64,000 bases of DNA, from NCBI GenBank assembly GCA_041659045.1, contig JBAZZB010000001.1, forward strand, positions 134,111-198,110. Direction: 5' to 3'. Of this stretch, positions 11,801-43,024 are shown one piece after another (position 1 is the stretch's first letter; each line of letters begins with the position of its first letter). The translations under genes and the position numbers were made by a program. The DNA is from Patescibacteria group bacterium (GTDB lineage: Bacteria > Patescibacteriota > Patescibacteriia > SG8-24 > DYFX01). Below the pieces are notes generated by a model that was given only the letters and a program-made list of their open reading frames with translations, did no database searches and was not told the origin of the DNA.

Positions 11801-12637
11801 ATTGATCGCGTGATACGCGCCGATGGCCAGGGCGTAGTCCGCGTTGGGCGGGAAGTAAGGAGTCTTGCCGATCTTTCGAAGCATTGCCTCGAGCGTTGCT
11901 CGGACGTAGTTCGACTTGTGTGGCATGGTACCAACGATGACGACGTCGCGGATGCCGCGGAACTCCGGGATCCGCTCGAAGAGAAGCAGTCGACTGGCGA
12001 GATCGGTCGCCAGGTGCTGGATGACGCTCTTCGCGCCGCGTATGAGCTTCGTGATGGGGTCGTCCGTGGTTTCTCTTGCCGCTTTGGCGAAGCTGGCGGC
12101 CACCCACTGTTCGTAGGGCGTGCCTCGCAGCGACGGCACGGCTTCTCCGAGCATGAGGTCGTACGATGGGATGTGTTCCTTGCCTTCGAGGAGACCGTCA
12201 ATGGCTTCTCCGGAGGCAATGTCCAGCATCTCAAGCAAGCCATCGATACTGCCAGCGCTGTAGGGACTGCCAACGGGGAAGTCGTAGCCTTCACCGTTCA
12301 CGACCGTGAACGACATGCCGGTGCCGATTCCCACCACGATATGTTTCGTCTCGAGAGGCTTCGTCGCGCAGATCATCTGGTGCTGGGCGCCACGCGCTTG
12401 AAGGCGCAGCTCAGCCTGAATCGGATCACCAGGCCAGACGTGGTGGCGGAACTTCTCGAAAGCCTCTCTTGAGCCGTTGCCGGCGATGCAGATATCTCTG
12501 ACGCCAAGGTGTTCAAGGACTGAGACCAGGCTCGACTGGCGGACCACTCGAGAAGAGAGGAAGCACTCGGCACCCCGCTCGTCGATCCAGTAGATCTTGT
12601 CGCAGGTCAAACCGCAATCAACGCCGGCTTTCTTCAT
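11795..12637 (-). CDS. Type II pantothenate kinase-like protein (CoaW/fumble family, ASKHA ATPase)
   Basis: Start ATG at 12637 with AAGGAG 8 nt upstream. MKKAGVDCGLTCDKIYW..., IVVGIGTGMSFTVVNG..., VGSPYSAGSIDGLL... and YALAIGAYHA align with the S. aureus CoaW motifs (GIDAGGT, VGTGTS, GGIGTGGG, AIGALYL). Confidence 0.65.
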   Translation of the reverse strand: MKKAGVDCGLTCDKIYWIDERGAECFLSSRVVRQSSLVSVLEHLGVRDICIAGNGSREAFEKFRHHVWPGDPIQAELRLQARGAQHQMICATKPLETKHIVVGIGTGMSFTVVNGEGYDFPVGSPYSAGSIDGLLEMLDIASGEAIDGLLEGKEHIPSYDLMLGEAVPSLRGTPYEQWVAASFAKAARETTDDPITKLIRGAKSVIQHLATDLASRLLLFERIPEFRGIRDVVIVGTMPHKSNYVRATLEAMLRKIGKTPYFPPNADYALAIGAYHAINP

Positions 12638-34822: not shown

Positions 34823-36166
34823 ATGGCGAACCACAAACTCAATCCATTCTCCGAAACGCTCAAGACGTTTTTTGGGCGCGATACTTCGATTCTGCGGGAG
34901 GCTTTAAAGGCAATACAACCCGCTGAACTCGGCGTGATCATTAACGGGTTGTCCGAGCGCGAGAAAATTCAGGTGCTCGCCCTGCTTGAAGACCAAAAAC
35001 TCGGGCGCGTTTTGTGGGAAGTCAGCCCCCACACGAGACGCAGACTTCTTACAAGGATGTCTTCGGATCGTTTGGTGAAGCTCGTGACGGGTTTGGAATC
35101 GGACGAAGCGGCCGACGTCATTCAGCTGCTCGACCGTCGTCGCAAGGAGCGCATCATCGAGGCGCTCCGACGCCACGACCCCAAGAAGATTTTACCGCTT
35201 CTCGGTTTCGAAGAAGAGACGGCCGGCGGTCTCATGAAGTCCGAGTATTTGCGCGCGGAATCCGGCAAGACGGTCGAAGAAGTGCGTAAAGCGATTGCGG
35301 CTACGGGCAGCGGCCTGCAAAAAGCTTCGACGGTGTATGTCGTCGACGCGACGAATTCGCTGGTTGGCGCAATTTCGTTGATGCGTTTGGCAACCGCGTC
35401 AGCTGATAGTTTGATTGACGATTTGGCACACATTCCACCGACCAAACTTCCGGTCGGGATGTTGCAAGACGAGGTGACGCAGCTTTTCAGTGATCTCGAC
35501 GCGGTCGAACTTCCCGTTGTCGACGCACGAGGGAAACTCCTCGGTGTCGTGACGGCCGACGACGTGCTCGACGTGTTGAAGGAATCTCTTTCCGAAGATC
35601 TTTCGCGCTTCAGCGGTACTTCTGAAGACGAGCACGTGAGCGACCCTGCCTGGCTCTCGATTCGCCGCCGCTTGCCGTGGCTTCTTGTGAACCTTGCGAC
35701 CGCTGTTCTGGCAGCGTCCGTCGTCGCGCAATTTCAGGATACGATCAGCCAGATCGTCATTTTGGCGGCGCTCATGCCGATCGTCGCGGGTATGGGAGGA
35801 AACGCCGTGACGCAAACGCTCGGCGTTTCGATTCGTGCACTCGCGCTTCATCAGCTACATACCTGGGACATTTGGAAGATCACTGTTCGGCAGATGCTGG
35901 TCGGCGCAGCGAACGGCTGCTTGACCGGCGTGGTGATGGGTGGTCTGGCGTACGCGTGGACAGGCGACATTCAGCTCGCGTTCGTCATGGTGATCGCCAT
36001 GACAGTGACGCTCTTCATCGCTGGACTCGGTGGGATCCTGATTCCCGTCACTATGAAGAAGCTGAAGATCGATCCGGCGTTGGCTTCGACCGTCTTTGCC
36101 ACGACTCTGACTGATGTGATCGGGTTCCTGACATTTCTCGGTCTGGCTAAAATCCTTTTGACATGA
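34823..36166 (+). CDS. mgtE: Magnesium transporter MgtE
   Basis: N-terminal domain, tandem CBS (…VYVVDATNSLVGAISLMRL…LPVVDARGKLLGVVTADDVLDVL), and a C-terminal 5-TM MgtE domain. Confidence 0.9.
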   Translation: MANHKLNPFSETLKTFFGRDTSILREALKAIQPAELGVIINGLSEREKIQVLALLEDQKLGRVLWEVSPHTRRRLLTRMSSDRLVKLVTGLESDEAADVIQLLDRRRKERIIEALRRHDPKKILPLLGFEEETAGGLMKSEYLRAESGKTVEEVRKAIAATGSGLQKASTVYVVDATNSLVGAISLMRLATASADSLIDDLAHIPPTKLPVGMLQDEVTQLFSDLDAVELPVVDARGKLLGVVTADDVLDVLKESLSEDLSRFSGTSEDEHVSDPAWLSIRRRLPWLLVNLATAVLAASVVAQFQDTISQIVILAALMPIVAGMGGNAVTQTLGVSIRALALHQLHTWDIWKITVRQMLVGAANGCLTGVVMGGLAYAWTGDIQLAFVMVIAMTVTLFIAGLGGILIPVTMKKLKIDPALASTVFATTLTDVIGFLTFLGLAKILLT

Positions 36167-37521
36167 AATTGCATTTCTTCGGTGCCGCTCAGGAAGTGAC
36201 GGGTACGTGCTACTTGTTGGAGTCGGGGAGTCATAAAGTGCTCGTCGATTGCGGAATTTTTCAGGGCGGCGACGGCGACAGCAAGCGGAACCACTTGCCG
36301 TTCCCGTTCGAACCGGACGCGATCGACGCGATCTTTTTGACGCATCCGCACATGGACCACGTTGGTCGCGTGCCTCTGCTTGTGAAGCGCGGCTACCGTG
36401 GGCCTATTTTTACAACGTTCCCGACAGCCGATCTCACCAAGTTGCTGTGGAAGGACATGTTGTCCGTCATGCAAGACGCGGAAAAGCGTGAACATGTGCC
36501 GCCTCTCTACGACGAAGATGACGTGGCCAAAGCGGAAGCGCGGCTCATGCCGGTTGAATACGAGACGCTGGCGGAAATTTGCGCGGGAGCGATTAAGGCG
36601 ACCTTCCACGACGCCGGTCACGTCCTTGGTTCGGCGTTTATCGAGTTTAACGTCGAGAATCGAACGGTCGTTTTTTCTGGAGACCTTGGCAACGATGACG
36701 TGCCGATTTTGCGTCCGACGGCGTCTCTGCCCGCTTGCGACGTGCTTGTGATCGAGTCGACCTACGGAGATCGTTTGCACGAAGACTTGCAGACACGCCA
36801 AACGATTTTGCGTGACCTCGTGAAAGAGACGATCGAAAAAAAGGGCGTGCTCATGATCCCGACCTTCGCGATCGAGCGCACGCAGGAAATCATGCTGACG
36901 CTGCATCGTCTTGCGGAGAACGGGGAAATTCCGCGCGTGCCGATTTTCCTCGACAGTCCGCTGGCCATCAACGCCACGCATGTGTATGAAGAGTACGGCC
37001 GGTATTTCAACGAGAATGCCAAAAAGGAGATGATGTCTGGTCACGAGTTATTTGAGTTGCCAGGTTTTGTCGCCACCAAGACGCCGGACATGTCGAAAAA
37101 AATTAATGATGTCGTGCCGCCGAAAGTGATCCTGGCGGGATCCGGCATGATGACGGGTGGACGCATCTTGCATCATCTCGTCCGTTACTTGCCTGACCCG
37201 AATTCAACCTTGATGATCGTCGGGTATCAGGCGCACGGGACGGTTGGACGCCGATTGTATGAAGGCGCAAAAACCGTGCGCATCCACGGTCACGATGTTC
37301 ACGTCAACGCGACCGTGACCTCCGTTGGTGCCTGGAGCGCGCACGCCGACCAAGCAAAACTCCTGCGTTGGATCCAGAGTGCACCGAAGAAGCCGGAGGT
37401 CGTTCTCGTGACGCACGGCGAACAAAACGCGTCGGAAACACTCGAGCGAAAACTGAAGCGGGACCTGAACATCGATGCCTATGTTCCGGCTCCAGGCCAG
37501 ATGTTCAACCTACATACATAA
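36163..37521 (+). CDS. MBL-fold beta-CASP ribonuclease (RNase J-like/CPSF-like)
   Basis: HPHMDHVG metallo-beta-lactamase motif, beta-CASP region and a C-terminal RNA-metabolising MBL domain; ATGA overlap with mgtE. Confidence 0.7.
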   Translation: MKLHFFGAAQEVTGTCYLLESGSHKVLVDCGIFQGGDGDSKRNHLPFPFEPDAIDAIFLTHPHMDHVGRVPLLVKRGYRGPIFTTFPTADLTKLLWKDMLSVMQDAEKREHVPPLYDEDDVAKAEARLMPVEYETLAEICAGAIKATFHDAGHVLGSAFIEFNVENRTVVFSGDLGNDDVPILRPTASLPACDVLVIESTYGDRLHEDLQTRQTILRDLVKETIEKKGVLMIPTFAIERTQEIMLTLHRLAENGEIPRVPIFLDSPLAINATHVYEEYGRYFNENAKKEMMSGHELFELPGFVATKTPDMSKKINDVVPPKVILAGSGMMTGGRILHHLVRYLPDPNSTLMIVGYQAHGTVGRRLYEGAKTVRIHGHDVHVNATVTSVGAWSAHADQAKLLRWIQSAPKKPEVVLVTHGEQNASETLERKLKRDLNIDAYVPAPGQMFNLHT

Positions 37522-37532
37522 GAGGAAGTACA

Positions 37533-37559
37533 AAAATAGCCTAAAATAGGCTATTTTTG
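37533..37559 (+). terminator. Rho-independent terminator
   Basis: AAAATAGCC-taaaat-GGCTATTTT followed by a T-run. Confidence 0.75.
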
Positions 37560-37591
37560 CTAATATAAGCCATTTATATTGTTATTTAGTA

Positions 37592-37621
37592 TTGACAAAA
37601 CTGTCTAAATATGCTAGACTG
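37592..37621 (+). promoter_or_regulatory. Strong sigma70-like promoter driving the GC-rich island
   Basis: TTGACA (37592-37597), a 17/18-nt spacer, then TAGACT (37616-37621), in an AT-rich stretch ~50 nt upstream of the 37671 ATG. Confidence 0.55.
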
Positions 37622-37670
37622 CTTGCATCGTAGGACTGACAGTTCACCCCGCAATTCTGGAGGATTTCTC

Positions 37671-37982
37671 ATGAAGCCCCTGCTCATTTCGCTCATCATC
37701 GCCCTCGGCCTCTTCGCCACCACCTCGACCGCTTCGGCCGACCGCACCTTCGAGGTGAAGGACGACGTGGTGAAGCTGGTCATCAAGAAGGCGAAGTTCG
37801 TCTTCGCCAAGCCCACCACCACCCTCATCAAGACCTGTGTCGACGACGCCCGCTACGAGTGCGTCTACAAGCTGGTCGGCAAGAACCGGCGCCAGAAGGA
37901 GATCAAGATCTACGAGTACCGCGCGGACGACTACGTCTTCCCGATCTACATCACCGAGCACAAGCTCGCCTCCACCAACTGA
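37671..37982 (+). CDS. Small secreted protein (island gene A)
   Basis: GGAGGA RBS; signal peptide MKPLLISLIIALGLFATTSTASA; 103 aa with 2 Cys; extreme GC3 codon bias. Confidence 0.6.
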   Translation: MKPLLISLIIALGLFATTSTASADRTFEVKDDVVKLVIKKAKFVFAKPTTTLIKTCVDDARYECVYKLVGKNRRQKEIKIYEYRADDYVFPIYITEHKLASTN

Positions 37983-38033
37983 TCGCGTCGCGATCACTCA
38001 GCTCAGCGCGTCGAGCCTCCGCTCGACGTCTCT

Positions 38034-38080
38034 GCCAAAGCTTCCGAGTCTCTCGGAATCTCCGGCAGGGAAACGTTCCC
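38034..38080 (+). repeat. Island repeat R1 (47 nt, two hairpins) upstream of gene B
   Basis: gccaaagcttCCGAGtctCTCGGaatctccggcaGGGAAacgTTCCC; the homolog is at 38499-38548. Confidence 0.5.
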
Positions 38081-38116
38081 AACGAGACACCACCACATAC
38101 CACAGCGAGGTTACCC

Positions 38117-38452
38117 GTGCCCGAGTTCAAGCTCTACATCATTGCCGACGCGTGCGCGCCCGCCGCCCTCATGTTCGGACCGTTCAACTCTCCCGAGGCG
38201 GCCGACGCCTGGCTCGAGGAGCTCAAGGGTCGGCTGCCCGCCAACGAGTGGCACCACAAGGTGCAGACGATCAAGGGGTCGTACCTCCCCAACGCGCTCG
38301 TCTACAGGCGCTTCCAGAACATCGCCACCAAGCAGTGGTTCACGGTCCACCTCGTCGAGGTCGACAAGGACGCCGCGGTGGCCAGCACGTTCGAAGCCGC
38401 GCAGGACCTCGCCACGGTGCTCTTGCACCTGAACCTCAAGTCCGCCACCTAG
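38117..38452 (+). CDS. Hypothetical cytoplasmic protein (island gene B)
   Basis: GTG start with GAGG upstream; 111 aa; GC3-rich. Confidence 0.5.
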   Translation: MPEFKLYIIADACAPAALMFGPFNSPEAADAWLEELKGRLPANEWHHKVQTIKGSYLPNALVYRRFQNIATKQWFTVHLVEVDKDAAVASTFEAAQDLATVLLHLNLKSAT

Positions 38453-38498
38453 TCTCACCCCTCAGTCTTCGCAGGACGCCCGCCCCCGTCCTGCTCCC

Positions 38499-38548
38499 GC
38501 CAAAGCTTCCGATAGAATCGGAATCTCCGGCGGGAAAATCTTCCCGCC
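38499..38548 (+). repeat. Island repeat R2 (50 nt, two hairpins) upstream of gene C
   Basis: gccaaagcttCCGATagaATCGGaatctccggcGGGAAaatcTTCCCgcc; hairpin 1 carries compensatory changes relative to R1 (CCGAG/CTCGG to CCGAT/ATCGG). Confidence 0.5.
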
Positions 38549-38600
38549 TGTTTCTGTTCATGGGCGATCGTGCCCAACAACCCCGGCCAAGGAGGCCACC

Positions 38601-39077
38601 ATGCACCGTCCCGATTTGATGCTGAGCCGCGAAGTGCTGCGCCCGCGACCTGCTCCGACGTTCCCGCGCCGCAAGCTCGGATTCATTCCGATCAGCTTGA
38701 TCGTTGCGGGTGTCGTCGCGATCACGGTCGCAGTCATGGGCATGATGCACGATCGTTCGATGCGCCAGCCTTCCGTGGCCGGTCTGTCGGTCCCGGCTCC
38801 GTCGGCGCCGTTCGCCTGCACGCTCGAGGATCGCGAGATCCAGAACCTCGTCTACGAGCTCTCCATGCACGGCTGGATCCAGCCGTTCGAAGTCGAGGGG
38901 GTCTCGTGCGATCCGTTCAGCCAGACCTCGCCGAAGGTGCGTTTCACCATCGTCGAGCGTCCGGTGGACGAGCTCTGGATCTACTACACGACCGAGCATC
39001 GCTATCCGTGCAAGCCGCCCAAGGAGTCGTGGCTGCGCGGAGATCCGAGCGCCTGGAAGTACTGCTACAAGCGGTGA
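38601..39077 (+). CDS. Membrane-anchored protein with Cys-containing extracytoplasmic domain (island gene C)
   Basis: AAGGAGG RBS; one TM (FIPISLIVAGVVAITVAVMGMM); 158 aa. Confidence 0.6.
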   Translation: MHRPDLMLSREVLRPRPAPTFPRRKLGFIPISLIVAGVVAITVAVMGMMHDRSMRQPSVAGLSVPAPSAPFACTLEDREIQNLVYELSMHGWIQPFEVEGVSCDPFSQTSPKVRFTIVERPVDELWIYYTTEHRYPCKPPKESWLRGDPSAWKYCYKR

Positions 39078-39079
39078 CC

Positions 39080-39190
39080 ATGTTCGAAGTTCTGTTCCTT
39101 CTCGCTCTGGTCGTCGCGCTCCTCACGGACGTGACGCCAGAAACCAAGATCGTCGCGCCCGCGCCGCCCGACGACCTCAACCTCAACTGA
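39080..39190 (+). CDS. Possible 36-aa TM peptide
   Basis: ATG overlaps the gene C stop (gTGAccATG); MFEVLFLLALVVALLTDVTPETKIVAPAPPDDLNLN. Confidence 0.3.
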   Translation: MFEVLFLLALVVALLTDVTPETKIVAPAPPDDLNLN

Positions 39191-39295
39191 CCGCACCTAT
39201 CCGGTCATAAAAATGATAGGGTTCTCTCTGAGCGTTCGAGTGATCGAACATTCGGATCGGAATTCCGTCCGCTCCAGACGTTTTTAGGAGGTCCC

Positions 39296-39526
39296 ATGCG
39301 CTTCTGGTCCGCCTTGTCTCTGTTCATCCTCAGTCTTGTTGCCATCGTCCACGGCTACCGCGTCCAGGAGGATGGGTACTTCGTGAGCGGCTTCATCGCT
39401 TTGTTGGTGAGTGTTCTCGCCATGGTCTATTACACCTGGGTGTACACCATCGAGACGCTCAGCGAGGAAGTCGCCAAGACCATCGCCAAGGAGAAAAGGA
39501 ACATCAGGAGCCATCATGGCCCCTGA
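39296..39526 (+). CDS. Small 2-TM membrane protein (island gene D)
   Basis: AGGAGG RBS; 76 aa. Confidence 0.55.
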   Translation: MRFWSALSLFILSLVAIVHGYRVQEDGYFVSGFIALLVSVLAMVYYTWVYTIETLSEEVAKTIAKEKRNIRSHHGP

Positions 39527-39681
39527 GCAAGATCAATCATGGTTCGTCGAGGACAACCATGCACAACCCGTCGGTTCTCACGGCGGGTTTTATCGTTCCC
39601 TAATATTCTTGACATGTGAGCTTTTCCTTGGTAGCCTCAACCTCGTCTTTGGACAGCCCGTTTTACGGGTAGGAGGACATC

Positions 39682-40830
39682 ATGCGTACCCAGCTCGCTC
39701 TGCTCGTTTCCTTGGTTTTCGTGGTCTGCACCGGCGCTTGCGCCGGTCGTCAGCGCCCCCAGTCGGGCCTGCGTTCCGAGCTGCATCAGCCGCTGGCCGC
39801 TCCCGACCCCAAGGTCCAGAGCGTCCCCATCGATACGGAGATCGTCGTGCCCGAAGCACCGCACGCCGCCGCCTCGGTCGCGGCAGTCGCCGTCCCCAAG
39901 AAGATCGTGCCGAAGCGCATCAAGCGCGTCCGTTCCGCTCAGGAACAGATCAACTTCGATGTGCGGCAGATCATCAACGCGAACAACGCCTGGCTCCGCG
40001 CCGTGGGCGAGCGAGTGTACGGGACGCGTGTCCCGCCATCGCTGCCCATGAACGACGAGCTCGTCGCTGCTCTGCGCATCGAACCCAACACCGTCGAACG
40101 TCCGCGACGGTACGTCGCGAAGGCACCGCGCGCTTCCGTGAAGCACGCCAAGCCCCCGATCCCGTCCGTGACGCACGTCGTCTACAGCGCCGCGCGAACG
40201 CGCTCGTTGACACCGCTACCACCAAAGGTGCAAGAACGCGCAAACGTTGCCGCTCTTGCCGCCCTGGAATCGCCTGATCCCACGACGCTCGGCGTCGTGA
40301 GTTCCGCCCCGCCCGCTACTACGGAAGCCACATCTTCCGTCGTGCACATGTCCAACATGTCCGCGCGACGTTCCGATGTCGCGCTCACCGATCCCAAATC
40401 CTCTTCGATCGACGTGGTCGATCGCCCGCACCTGTTCGAACCGAGCGCTTCCGTAAGCGCTTCCAGTCCGTTCTACCAGCTCTACCTCCCGGCGATCATC
40501 TTCGCGGTGATCCTCGGTCCGCTCCTTGGTTACATCCTTTCGCGCCGTCCAACGCGCGTTTCGTCGTTCGATGATGACGTCGTTCGCGACGCCACCAGCA
40601 CAGTCGTTACCGACCCTGCTCCGACCCACGTACTCGCCCTTGCGCACGTCGTACCTCACTCCGCCCCGACCCAGGAGGCCAGGCCTCCTCACCAGTTCCC
40701 GGAAGGTTCCGGACAGATCATCCGTTCGGAAGACCTCAACACCGGTCAGATCGCTGCCGGTGAGATCGAGGACAAGAACCTCGACGCGCCTACCCAGGCG
40801 CCACCCACGAACACCATCTACTTGAACTGA
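39682..40830 (+). CDS. Lipoprotein/secreted low-complexity protein with a C-proximal TM (island gene E)
   Basis: AGGAGG RBS; signal peptide with Cys; Pro/Ala/Ser-rich; TM FYQLYLPAIIFAVILGPLLGYIL near the C-terminus. Confidence 0.6.
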   Translation: MRTQLALLVSLVFVVCTGACAGRQRPQSGLRSELHQPLAAPDPKVQSVPIDTEIVVPEAPHAAASVAAVAVPKKIVPKRIKRVRSAQEQINFDVRQIINANNAWLRAVGERVYGTRVPPSLPMNDELVAALRIEPNTVERPRRYVAKAPRASVKHAKPPIPSVTHVVYSAARTRSLTPLPPKVQERANVAALAALESPDPTTLGVVSSAPPATTEATSSVVHMSNMSARRSDVALTDPKSSSIDVVDRPHLFEPSASVSASSPFYQLYLPAIIFAVILGPLLGYILSRRPTRVSSFDDDVVRDATSTVVTDPAPTHVLALAHVVPHSAPTQEARPPHQFPEGSGQIIRSEDLNTGQIAAGEIEDKNLDAPTQAPPTNTIYLN

Positions 40831-40856
40831 CGTGGTCAGTTCCGCGCAACTTCATC

Positions 40857-40885
40857 GGCCCCTCCTCGCGAGGCGGCCGTTTTTT
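40857..40885 (+). terminator. Rho-independent terminator ending the island
   Basis: GC-rich hairpin (GGCC-cctcctcgcgagg-CGGCC) followed by TTTTTT. Confidence 0.75.
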
Positions 40886-40933
40886 ATCTCTTTTTTTGAC
40901 ACGTTCGCCATCTCATTCTCTAAGCTGCTATTG

Positions 40934-40962
40934 TTGACAAGACCCTTTAGAAGCGGTATTTT
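40934..40962 (+). promoter_or_regulatory. Putative uvrB promoter
   Basis: TTGACA (40934-40939), 17 nt, then TATTTT (40957-40962); ATG at 40982. Confidence 0.4.
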
Positions 40963-40981
40963 GCGTTCTTATTGATCCGTC

Positions 40982-43024
40982 ATGAACTTCAAGCTCAAAG
41001 CACCCTATTCGCCAGCCGGAGATCAGCCGCAAGCTATTGAAAAGCTCGTGGCCGGTTTGAAGTCGGGCCAGGAGATGCAGACGCTTCTTGGTGTGACGGG
41101 TTCAGGAAAAACGTACACCGTCGCCAACGTTATTCAGGAAATGCAGAAGCCAACCTTGGTGATCGCGCATAACAAGACGTTGGCCGCGCAGTTGTGCAAC
41201 GAGTTCCGCGAGTTCTTCCCGGAGAACGCTGTTGAGTACTTCGTGTCGTATTACGACTACTACCAGCCGGAAGCTTACGTGCCGTCGAGCGACACCTATA
41301 TCGAGAAGGAATCGATGATCAACGAAGAGATCGATCGACTTCGACACGCTTCGACGCAGGCACTTCTGACGCGCAAGGACGTCATCATCGTTGCTTCGGT
41401 TTCCTGCATCTACGGCTTGGGTGCGCCGGAACAATATGAAAAAACCGTGCTTCATTTCAAAACAGGGGAGCGCATCACGCGCGAAGGCGTTTTGACGCGT
41501 TTTATCGAGATGCAGTTCGAGCGCACGACCGCCGATCTGACGCGTGGCCATTTCCGCGTGCGCGGTGAAACGGTCGAGGTCATGCCGGCGAACGAAGAGA
41601 TGATCTATCGCATCGAGACGGGCATGGGCGAGATCACGGGCATCTATAAAATCGATCCGCTGACGCGTAAGCGTGCCGAGCGTGTCGAAGATGTTTGGAT
41701 TTTCCCAGCCAAGCACTTCATTACGAATGCTGAAGATCGGACACGTGCCTTGGCACAGATGGAAATTGAAATGAAGGCACAGCTCGAGAAGTTCCGCAAA
41801 GAAGGAAAGCTGCTCGAAGCAGAGCGTCTTGAACGCCGTACGCGGTTCGATATGGCGATGATGCGCGAAGTCGGCTACTGCCACGGCATCGAGAACTATT
41901 CGCAGATTCTTTCCGGACGTCCGCCGGGTGCTCCGCCGGATACGCTCATGTCGTATTTCCCGAAAGATTTCTTGATGGTCATCGATGAATCGCATGTCAC
42001 GATTCCGCAGATCGGAGGCATGTCGGCGGGGGACGCGGCGCGCAAGAAGACGCTTATTGAATACGGTTTCCGTTTGCCGAGCGCTGCCGATAACCGCCCG
42101 CTTGCCTGGGCGGAATTTGAATCGCGCATGCCGCAAGCCTTGTTTGTTTCGGCGACGCCTGGGAAATACGAATACGCAAACAGTGACCAGATCGTCGAGC
42201 AAATCATTCGCCCGACGGGTCTTGTCGATCCTGAAGTCATTGTGAAACCGGTTACGGAAGACCTGAACACTGGTTACAAAGGCCAGGTTGAAGATTTGAT
42301 TGAGCGCATCAAGGGCCGTATTGAAAAAGACGAGCGCGTCATGGCGACGACGCTCACGAAAAAAATGGCCGAGGATCTTACGACGTATCTCGAGACGCTC
42401 AAGATCAAAGTGAAATACATTCATTCCGACGTCGAGACGCTTGATCGCATCCAGATTCTCCACGAGTTTCGTCGTGGCGTGTTCGACGTCTTAATCGGCG
42501 TGAACTTGCTGCGTGAAGGTCTCGACTTACCGGAAGTTTCGCTCGTCGCAATTCTCGATGCCGACAAGGAGGGTTTCCTCCGTTCTGAAACGTCGCTGAT
42601 TCAAACAATCGGCCGCGCCGCGCGTAACGTCGGTGGCCAAGTCGTGCTGTATGCCGACGGCGATACCGGTTCGCTCACGCGCGCGATCAGAGAAACCAAT
42701 CGCCGCCGTGAACGGCAGATGGCGTACAACAAGGAGCACAACATTACGCCGAAGACGGTGAAGAAAGCGATCACGTCGATGTTCACCGAGATTGAGAAGT
42801 CTCGCGAGAAGGCCGCTAAGCGTAACCTCGAACTGGAAGCCAAGGCTGAGAAACGCCCGCTCGAAGCCGTGTTGAAGGAAAAAGAACTGCAGATGCGTGA
42901 CGCCGCCAAATCGCTCGAGTTCGAACTCGCGGCGCTCCTGCGCGATGAAATTCGCGAGCTCAAGAAGAAGCAGGCCGAAGCGGAGGCGAAGCCGAAGACC
43001 GCCAAACCGCGCCGCGGGCGCTAA
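40982..43024 (+). CDS. uvrB: Excinuclease ABC subunit B UvrB
   Basis: GVTGSGKT Walker A, helicase motifs, and the C-terminal UvrB/UvrC interaction motif [15 protein letters not shown]. Confidence 0.95.

Follow-up and report, generated by a model that had tools for sequence, protein, structure and literature searches.

The intercistronic RNase III signals of phage T7 (R0.3, R0.5, R1.1 and others) are said, in the work of Dunn and Studier and of Nicholson, to be sites at which the transcript is processed between cistrons. They are among the closest described counterparts of the element reported here, a structured module that occurs twice in a 64-kb stretch of Patescibacteria DNA (hereafter the window; contig JBAZZB010000001.1, positions 134,111 to 198,110) and is built of a GC-rich hairpin, H0, abutted by a bipartite hairpin, LH. 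Like the T7 signals, the module is repeated between the cistrons of what appears to be one polycistronic transcript, and LH is likewise an irregular hairpin whose upper and lower stems are split by a conserved internal loop, with the loop and core similar among copies and the stems variable. In both cases a hairpin remains to protect the upstream 3’ end, cleavage being putative here. There is no sequence relationship between the two, however. LH is the shorter, with 16 base pairs and three mismatched layers, and its approximately 19 layers stand at the short end against the roughly two helical turns of RNase III signals; the protective H0 is a separate hairpin; and the module is carried on the chromosome of a bacterium of the candidate phyla radiation (CPR) rather than by a phage.

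The attC sites of integrons and of clusters of attC sites lacking integrases (CALINs) offer a second comparison. They too are structured imperfect palindromes, repeated in a single orientation between the small, mostly orphan genes of a hypervariable array, and LH shares with them two 7-bp stems, an unpaired spacer, a variable loop and a break of homology at the 3’ base. In contrast to LH, which spans 40–43 nt and has neither cores nor bulges, attC sites carry RYYYAAC/GTTRRRY cores and extrahelical bulges and measure 57–141 nt. Moreover, attC arrays have a site after every cassette including the last, whereas here there is none after the last gene and no integrase or attI was found; the centre is the most conserved part of LH and the most variable part of attC; and one array replacement here ends inside a gene, unlike integron cassettes. 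Repetitive extragenic palindromes (REPs) and bacterial interspersed mosaic elements are also GC-rich extragenic hairpins located in operons (e.g., E. coli malE–malF), which can protect upstream mRNA and can act as recombination substrates. REPs, however, are distributed genome-wide in both orientations, with a 5’ GTAG and REP-associated tyrosine transposases, whereas the module is found at one locus and in one orientation, and GTAG lies immediately 5’ of the palindrome in none of the 24 units known to us. A further likeness is to the orphan toxin/immunity modules of contact-dependent inhibition (CDI) and Rhs systems, in which, as may be the case in this array, a conserved short tract before each variable unit allows recombinational swapping, and in which the swaps adjoin a fixed promoter-proximal gene, as they would here. 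In CDI/Rhs systems that tract is toxin coding sequence, whereas the tract of this array is a structured, non-coding spacer beside genes without recognisable toxin or immunity domains. A search of the literature on integrons and attC sites in Patescibacteria and on hypervariable small-protein arrays in CPR bacteria found nothing relevant.

Anatomy of the repeated module

A repeat search recovered the pair of repeats reported in a preliminary description of the window, R1 (38034–38080) and R2 (38499–38545), which are 47 nt long and 81% identical. The pattern GCCAAAGCTTCCG-N7-CGGAATCTCCGGC has exactly two matches in the window with up to three mismatches and none in 100 shuffles, while the half-patterns on their own occur elsewhere at chance level. 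When all of the window was scanned unfiltered with a covariance model, again only two copies were returned (scores in Table 1), the next plus-strand match reaching 11.5 bits.

The preliminary description had pictured each repeat as a double hairpin. Its first hairpin proved to be real and longer than claimed (TTCCGAG-TCT-CTCGGAA in R1, TTCCGAT-AGA-ATCGGAA in R2), and the compensatory change noted there between the two copies, one pair from G:C to U:A, was upheld. RNAfold nests this hairpin in the longer LH hairpin (z of about −3.5 to −3.8 for both copies), where it forms the 7-bp inner stem. The outer stem that encloses it (CTCTGCC/GGCAGGG in R1, TCCCGCC/GGCGGGA in R2, with a C·U mismatch before the inner stem) had been overlooked and contributes two more compensatory pairs between R1 and R2. 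The second hairpin fared less well: it is found in both window copies (38068–38080 and 38529–38548) but is better than shuffles in only 4 of the 24 copies now known. Because hairpin 2 and the LH outer stem use one and the same G-rich 3’ arm, the two are mutually exclusive, and in the minimum-free-energy fold of the whole R2 spacer LH forms in place of hairpin 2. Just 3’ of LH the sequence information drops to approximately zero. On this comparison of copies, the conserved unit is H0 together with the abutting LH, and not a double hairpin.

From its base upwards, LH consists of an outer stem of 7 bp, the AA/CC loop, the AG:CU pairs, a 1x1 mismatch and the 7-bp inner stem, and its 16 base pairs are stacked in about 19 layers (7 bp, 2x2 loop, 2 bp, 1x1 mismatch, 7 bp) beneath a terminal loop of variable length (2–5 nt). 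A near-invariant core, AAG-N-NNCNGA ... UCNGNN-N-CU, is flanked by covarying stems; the near-invariant positions are A13:U37, G14:C36, C18:G32, G20:C30 and A21:U29, joined in the core group by the AA/CC loop. H0 corresponds to the GC hairpin that had been described just after the preceding stop codon, and it is present in both window copies at an equal position with a different sequence. It lies upstream of LH in 24/24 copies, 15–70 nt past the upstream stop codon, with a predicted stability of −8.5 to −20 kcal/mol and a variable sequence, always abutting LH and never followed by a U-run. H0 was considered as an intrinsic terminator and rejected, as LH and not a U-tract comes directly next in all 24 copies; only hairpin 2 of R2 (38529–38558) fits such a signal. 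A C-rich, CCUCAGC-like motif is frequent between the stop codon and H0. The reported distances to the start codons were also confirmed, with 36 nt from the end of R1 to the GTG start of gene B (38117) and, R2 being taken to 38548 as first delimited, 52 nt from its end to the ATG start of gene C (38601). Rfam 15 had no match on the element at E ≤ 5 (window 36000–42000), nor any at gathering thresholds in L017, the relative introduced below.

Relatives, covariation and placement

Relatives were sought by a pattern scan of representative genomes, by a metagenome scan and through homologues of the beta-CASP RNase encoded upstream of the array. The loose pattern scan gave 37 matches, of which only L017 was a true relative; the remainder shared only the specified bases or belonged to an unrelated Bacteroidales motif. 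L017 shows the order beta-CASP gene, promoter, gene A homologue, module, a different small membrane gene, module, gene C homologue, D, F and uvrB. The metagenome scan added L038, a 4.6-kb contig on which five modules separate six small genes ahead of a gene F homologue, and L039, where the end of a Hainich groundwater contig carries at 2110–2156 a probable distant relative of LH, to judge from its sequence (GTCCGCC AAAG C TTCAGCG..GGCGGAA G CTCC GGCGGGT, 25–27 bits). The L039 contig is AT-rich and CPR-like, has tRNA genes adjoining this site and stops about 100 nt further on. Beta-CASP homologues led to the syntenic loci L040–L055. Relatives whose beta-CASP protein is at least about 75% identical to that of the window all have at this place an array of small genes without Pfam matches; L054 (70%) has a small array and L055 (60%) none.

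A first covariance model was built from 11 copies found by sequence alone and a second from 21 copies. Together they yielded 24 distinct plus-strand copies, spread over 12 genomes or contigs of related Patescibacteria, including the further copies that the preliminary description had proposed looking for. Among the 11 sequence-only copies 96% of cells are paired and six pairs show two-sided changes, with none of 500 shuffles as good. In the set of 21, 95.2% of cells are paired and two-sided changes occur in 12 of the 15 pairs (36 cells); again 0/500 shuffles reach the observed value, and slid controls give 33–56%. RNAalifold, without the structure being supplied, recovers 14 of the 15 pairs. 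The earlier suggestion of a selected structure is thus borne out, as related genomes hold further copies with extensive compensatory change: the covariation indicates that the stem-loop structure is real and selected, and the searches that the module is an undescribed, lineage-specific one, present in one lineage of Patescibacteria.

All 24 copies are located in spacers between co-directional genes of one syntenic array and in the orientation of those genes. The array site lies between the beta-CASP gene and uvrB, and is hypervariable in gene content. Neither the unfiltered scan of the 64-kb window nor that of approximately 330 kb of related loci, with the models, showed copies outside the array. 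Within the array no copy precedes the first gene, where a promoter stands instead, or separates overlapping gene pairs, and none follows the last gene in the window (past 39190), L017, L040, L041, L043 or L047, where terminators are found instead. The module occupies 4 of 4 spacers in L050 and 3 of 4 in L051. In an all-against-all BLASTP comparison A comes first and F last, with D and a further cluster (cluster 3) close to the end and mostly singletons in between, and the gene families flanking the module amount to at least 15 unrelated ones on each side. A tandem duplication that includes the genes was ruled out: genes B and C are without BLASTP similarity, and only the intergenic module of about 47–75 nt is repeated.

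Comparison of related arrays locates where their homology breaks. L040 and L041 have identical beta-CASP proteins and flanking DNA that is 96–97% identical, and yet their array content differs; the difference is a replaced segment that runs from the exact 3’ base of LH (L041 4569) to inside gene D’. Homology between the window and L017 ends at the 3’ base of LH (38072), and in L038 copies 2 and 3 share every base from about 10 nt ahead of H0 through the last of LH and then diverge. Between L051 and L050 the module is about 84% identical amid DNA that is otherwise unalignable, with no match even in most of gene A. Since every array unit has the same module of about 65–75 nt, the copies offer portable homology and probably also serve as homology tracts for the reshuffling of cassettes. 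The mobile-cassette boundary put forward in the preliminary description therefore survives in part, as the breakpoints are compatible with a role of the repeat in cassette turnover, whereas its attC identity does not.

Two relatives have other spacer modules. L046 carries at 11925–12002 and 12441–12524 a different one, in which a hairpin with a 10-bp stem, GATCCCGAGC...GCTCGGGATC, is followed by AGAAATGGGCC, and the first spacer of L047 (13985–14110) contains an H0 and a bipartite hairpin of unrelated sequence. From these modules, the architecture of the spacers seems to be more conserved than their sequence. The arrays also share a second motif, ATCYGGTCRTWAAAATGAT, which in the window (39199–39217) lies after gene D in a CCNATC...GATNGG hairpin (~39193–39224). 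It occurs once in the window and in 0/100 shuffles, includes a −10-like TAAAAT, and recurs in comparable spacers of L043 (12955–12973), L051 (7348–7366) and L052 (6206–6224).

Possible functions of the module

Compensatory stem changes are seen within single genomes and, together with loops of 2–5 nt, point to hairpin formation; on the same grounds we reject an operator in duplex DNA to which a dimeric repressor would bind. Strictly intercistronic copies, promoterless spacers and compensatory change argue for a folded single strand, which fits the mRNA of an operon. As for which strand, the intermediates of stem transitions read on the sense strand are U:G in 27 cases and A·C in 11, and canonical pairs make up 92.2% on the plus strand against 88.0% on the minus strand, so that the sense strand is probably the acting one. 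Our preferred, though still tentative, reading, to which we give somewhat less than an even chance, takes R1 and R2 for copies of a module that sits between cistrons in the mRNA and serves processing, stability or recognition. H0 and LH would be carried in the sense mRNA of an operon that runs from a promoter through genes A, B, C and D, encoding small secreted or membrane proteins. H0, as a stable GC hairpin without a U-tract, would block 3’-exonucleases and so protect the upstream cistron, while LH would be recognised by a factor acting in trans, for which a double-strand-specific endoribonuclease similar to RNase III is the likeliest candidate. Through cleavage the polycistronic transcript would be cut or marked between its cistrons, giving each its own stability and translation, as the T7 signals do. 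A side effect would be that the modules supply recombination with portable homology, by which gene units could be swapped, deleted or inserted. The structure, the between-gene placement, the promoterless spacers, the universal H0 and the unrelated neighbours support this reading, in which action at the level of RNA, the choice of strand, a part in processing and the nature of the factor are what we infer. Of the three functions that the preliminary description had entertained, we likewise infer that an RNA processing site or a cis-regulatory element in operon mRNA best fits the anatomy.

Several points weigh against this proposal. On the minus strand LH is more stable in 20 of the 24 copies (mean −24.9 against −21.9 kcal/mol) and the AA/CC loop becomes tandem G·U pairs, while the wobble pairs of H0 do not discriminate between the strands. 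With its 16 base pairs, LH is short for a classical RNase III substrate. The comparative statistics are also to be read with care, since 13 of the 24 copies came from structure-aware models, which inflates the fraction of paired cells, and since the copies are phylogenetically related, so that the shuffle statistics overstate significance.

The module could alternatively be a translational operator or riboregulator, with LH bound by a protein or refolding to control access of the ribosome to the downstream gene and no cleavage taking place. This we consider unlikely. A near-invariant core within covarying stems, a CUCC tract in LH that resembles an anti-Shine-Dalgarno sequence and a Shine-Dalgarno that is often in a small hairpin of its own would all suit such a device, as would the LH-to-start distance, held at 35–66 nt; the stop-to-LH distance, however, is about as constrained. 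Moreover, base-pair probabilities computed for 17 spacers never pair LH with the Shine-Dalgarno, and the C-rich motif ahead of H0 pairs with it no better than shuffles do (mean z = 0.06); these pairing computations speak against sequestration of the Shine-Dalgarno, whether through LH or through the CCUC motif that precedes H0. The array protein set, in addition, has no conserved cytoplasmic protein to offer as a binding partner. An attenuator, in which the LH outer stem would act as antiterminator against hairpin 2 as intrinsic terminator and so set the level of read-through, is very improbable: hairpin 2 rises above shuffles in so few copies, that of R1 lacks a U-tract (z = −0.1), and there is essentially no conservation downstream of LH. 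What speaks for it is the arrangement in R2, where GGCGGGAA can pair either with the upstream TCCCGCC or with the downstream TTCCCGCC, the latter then followed by TGTTTCTGTT, and the same arrangement at L047 15217 (−14.5 kcal/mol). Rather unlikely, too, is a passive repeat, left over from unit duplication and kept similar by gene conversion, whose hairpin is tolerated without any specific function. Identical copies within one genome (L038 copies 2 and 3; LH of copies 1 and 4), H0 types that group by genome and the different spacer modules of L046 and, in its first spacer, L047 are what would be expected of it, but gene conversion leaves unexplained the pairing-preserving change at 12 of 15 positions despite sequence divergence, the invariance of the loop nucleotides among genomes in which beta-CASP identity to the window protein is no more than 75–96%, and the persistence of the module beside unrelated genes while the surrounding coding DNA diverged beyond detection.

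The last alternative takes H0 and LH to be a DNA recombination site, attC-like or new, that folds as single-stranded DNA and is acted on by a recombinase encoded elsewhere, the units being mobile cassettes. The differing content of L040 and L041 beside an identical beta-CASP protein and three independent cases in which homology ends at the 3’ base of LH (window/L017, L041/L040, L038 copies 2 and 3) are in its favor, and the layout of LH, with two 7-bp stems parted by an unpaired spacer and a variable loop on top, is similar to that of attC with its R box, spacer, L box and terminal structure. Folding of the bottom strand is at least as stable as that of the top, and GC content at third codon positions (0.96 in genes A and B, 37671–38452, against 0.68 in flanking housekeeping genes) suggests exchange with higher-GC relatives. 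Nonetheless, every testable defining feature of attC failed (cores, integrase, last-gene site, bulges and length): the RYYYAAC/GTTRRRY core pair is present in 0 of 24 units on either strand, with GTTRRRY absent from all plus-strand units; 12 syntenic loci show no tyrosine recombinase Pfam match in the 10 kb to either side, although CALINs are without integrases too, and none was found among the 20 window open reading frames of 250–530 aa; arrays are without an LH copy past the last gene; and LH, at only 40–43 nt, has symmetric internal loops (2x2, 1x1) and no bulged bases. In addition, L041/L040 homology resumes inside gene D’ and not at a second site, as expected of homologous recombination, and the array is without phage or plasmid similarity (a viral contig scan gave 0 matches and phage and plasmid BLAST no match), so that it is not a recognisable mobile element. 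A recombination site is, in our view, distinctly unlikely, and its specific form, a non-integron cassette-exchange system in which a Xer-like or other recombinase would cut single-stranded H0 and LH at the 3’ base of LH, improbable; were it true, ultra-small CPR genomes would have a single fixed site on the chromosome for swapping genes for small surface proteins.

To our knowledge, almost nothing is known of post-transcriptional control or of variation in surface proteins in the Patescibacteria (CPR), which are episymbionts that have tiny genomes and are uncultured. The locus provides a compact, covariation-supported motif for metatranscriptomes or in vitro work, and a fixed chromosomal hot spot at which gene content differs even between near-identical strains and a repeated module marks the boundaries of the exchanged units. 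As an RNA processing signal, the module would amount to a naturally occurring punctuation mark for operons, similar to the Csy4 or RNase III sites of synthetic biology; as a DNA site, it would belong to a new cassette system. Under either reading the motif can be used in libraries of RNA or repeat families to find such arrays.

Locus and neighbouring features

The window comes from the core chromosome of a Patescibacteria metagenome-assembled genome (MAG) and forms part of a 646-kb contig. The array (Table 1) is preceded by genes for MgtE and the beta-CASP RNase and followed by uvrB; genes A and C are annotated as WC866_00990 and WC866_01000. The promoter ahead of gene A is the sole promoter-like site on the plus strand before 40934, the array spacers being without any, and we therefore read A-B-C-D as one operon. 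The promoter block is conserved in L017, L040, L041, L043, L046 and L047. Genes C and D are closely packed, with no module between them, and no LH copy follows D.

Table 1 Features of the array and its flanks in the window (window coordinates)
Feature	Position	Strand	Description
beta-CASP metallo-beta-lactamase RNase gene	36163-37521		upstream of array
Promoter	37592-37620	+	sigma-70-like, TTGACA-17-TAGACT, TG-extended; upstream of gene A
Gene A	37671-37982	+	103 aa, signal peptide; first array gene; 13-member A family
H0, copy 1	38008-38029	+	GCGTCGAGC-CTCC-GCTCGACGT; GC-rich, no U-tract, abuts LH; −15.1 kcal/mol
LH, copy 1	38030-38070	+	CTCTGCC AA AG C TTCCGAG tct CTCGGAA T CT CC GGCAGGG; core of R1; 60.8 bits
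Hairpin 2 of R1	38068-38080	+	GGGAA-acg-TTCCC; −5.5 kcal/mol, z = −0.1, no better than shuffles
Gene B	38117-38452	+	111 aa, GTG start; GAGG Shine-Dalgarno 7 nt upstream
H0, copy 2	38471-38494	+	GCAGGACG-cccgcccc-CGTCCTGC; −13.4 kcal/mol
LH, copy 2	38495-38535	+	TCCCGCC AA AG C TTCCGAT aga ATCGGAA T CT CC GGCGGGA; core of R2; 60.9 bits
Hairpin 2 of R2	38529-38558	+	GGCGGGAA-aatc-TTCCCGCC then TGTTTCTGTT; terminator-like, 8-bp stem, −15.1 kcal/mol, z = −3.5
Shine-Dalgarno hairpin	38585-38597	+	GGCC-AAGGA-GGCC, Shine-Dalgarno in small hairpin; ahead of gene C
Gene C	38601-39077	+	158 aa, ATG start, membrane-anchored; C family
Gene D	39080-39190	+	36 aa, transmembrane; D family
Gene E	39296-39526		between D and F
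Terminator-like hairpin	39565-39589		between E and F
Gene F	39682-40830		upstream of uvrB
uvrB	40982-43024		downstream of array

Proteins A–F had no meaningful match in Pfam, PHROGs or PADLOC, and NCBIfam gave nothing except a sub-threshold FtsL match for E. Gene B is a singleton across the compared arrays and a near-orphan in public protein collections, with three small homologues (31–40% identity) among 1.84 billion representative proteins. A single-sequence AF2 model predicts for it a beta-beta-alpha-beta fold (pLDDT 72), for which the PDB offered one weak match only, TGAM_1934 (2mcf, TM 0.60), itself without known function. The A–D stretch has 63% GC with a C>G skew, against 57% for the window. 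In most relatives the GC content of the array is about 0.61–0.66 while that of the core ranges from 0.55 to 0.67; since the former stays near-constant as the latter varies, the array looks imported or exchanged in the low-GC genome of the window, and base composition suggests that array DNA has been exchanged between lineages, with relatives of higher GC content.

Just upstream of uvrB, window 40828–40894 gives a weak Rfam suhB/mmgR match (18.6 bits against a gathering threshold of 41, E = 2.6) that is probably due to chance. The unrelated motif met in the pattern scan, GGGACAAGCTTCCGCTAWCGCGGAATCTCC with a downstream GATCTCCCAGGAGGGGA-like hairpin, was observed in eight Bacteroidales/Rikenellaceae MAG loci (L005, L007, L010, L019, L023, L034, L035 and L036); it has no Rfam match at gathering thresholds and shares with LH only the core AAGC-TTCCG...CGGAA-TCTCC. 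Finally, the arrangement seen ahead of gene C, with the Shine-Dalgarno in the loop of a GGCC-AAGGA-GGCC hairpin, recurs in array spacers of L038, L043, L046, L050 and L053 and, judged by this recurrence, is a conserved format of the ribosome-binding site for many array genes.

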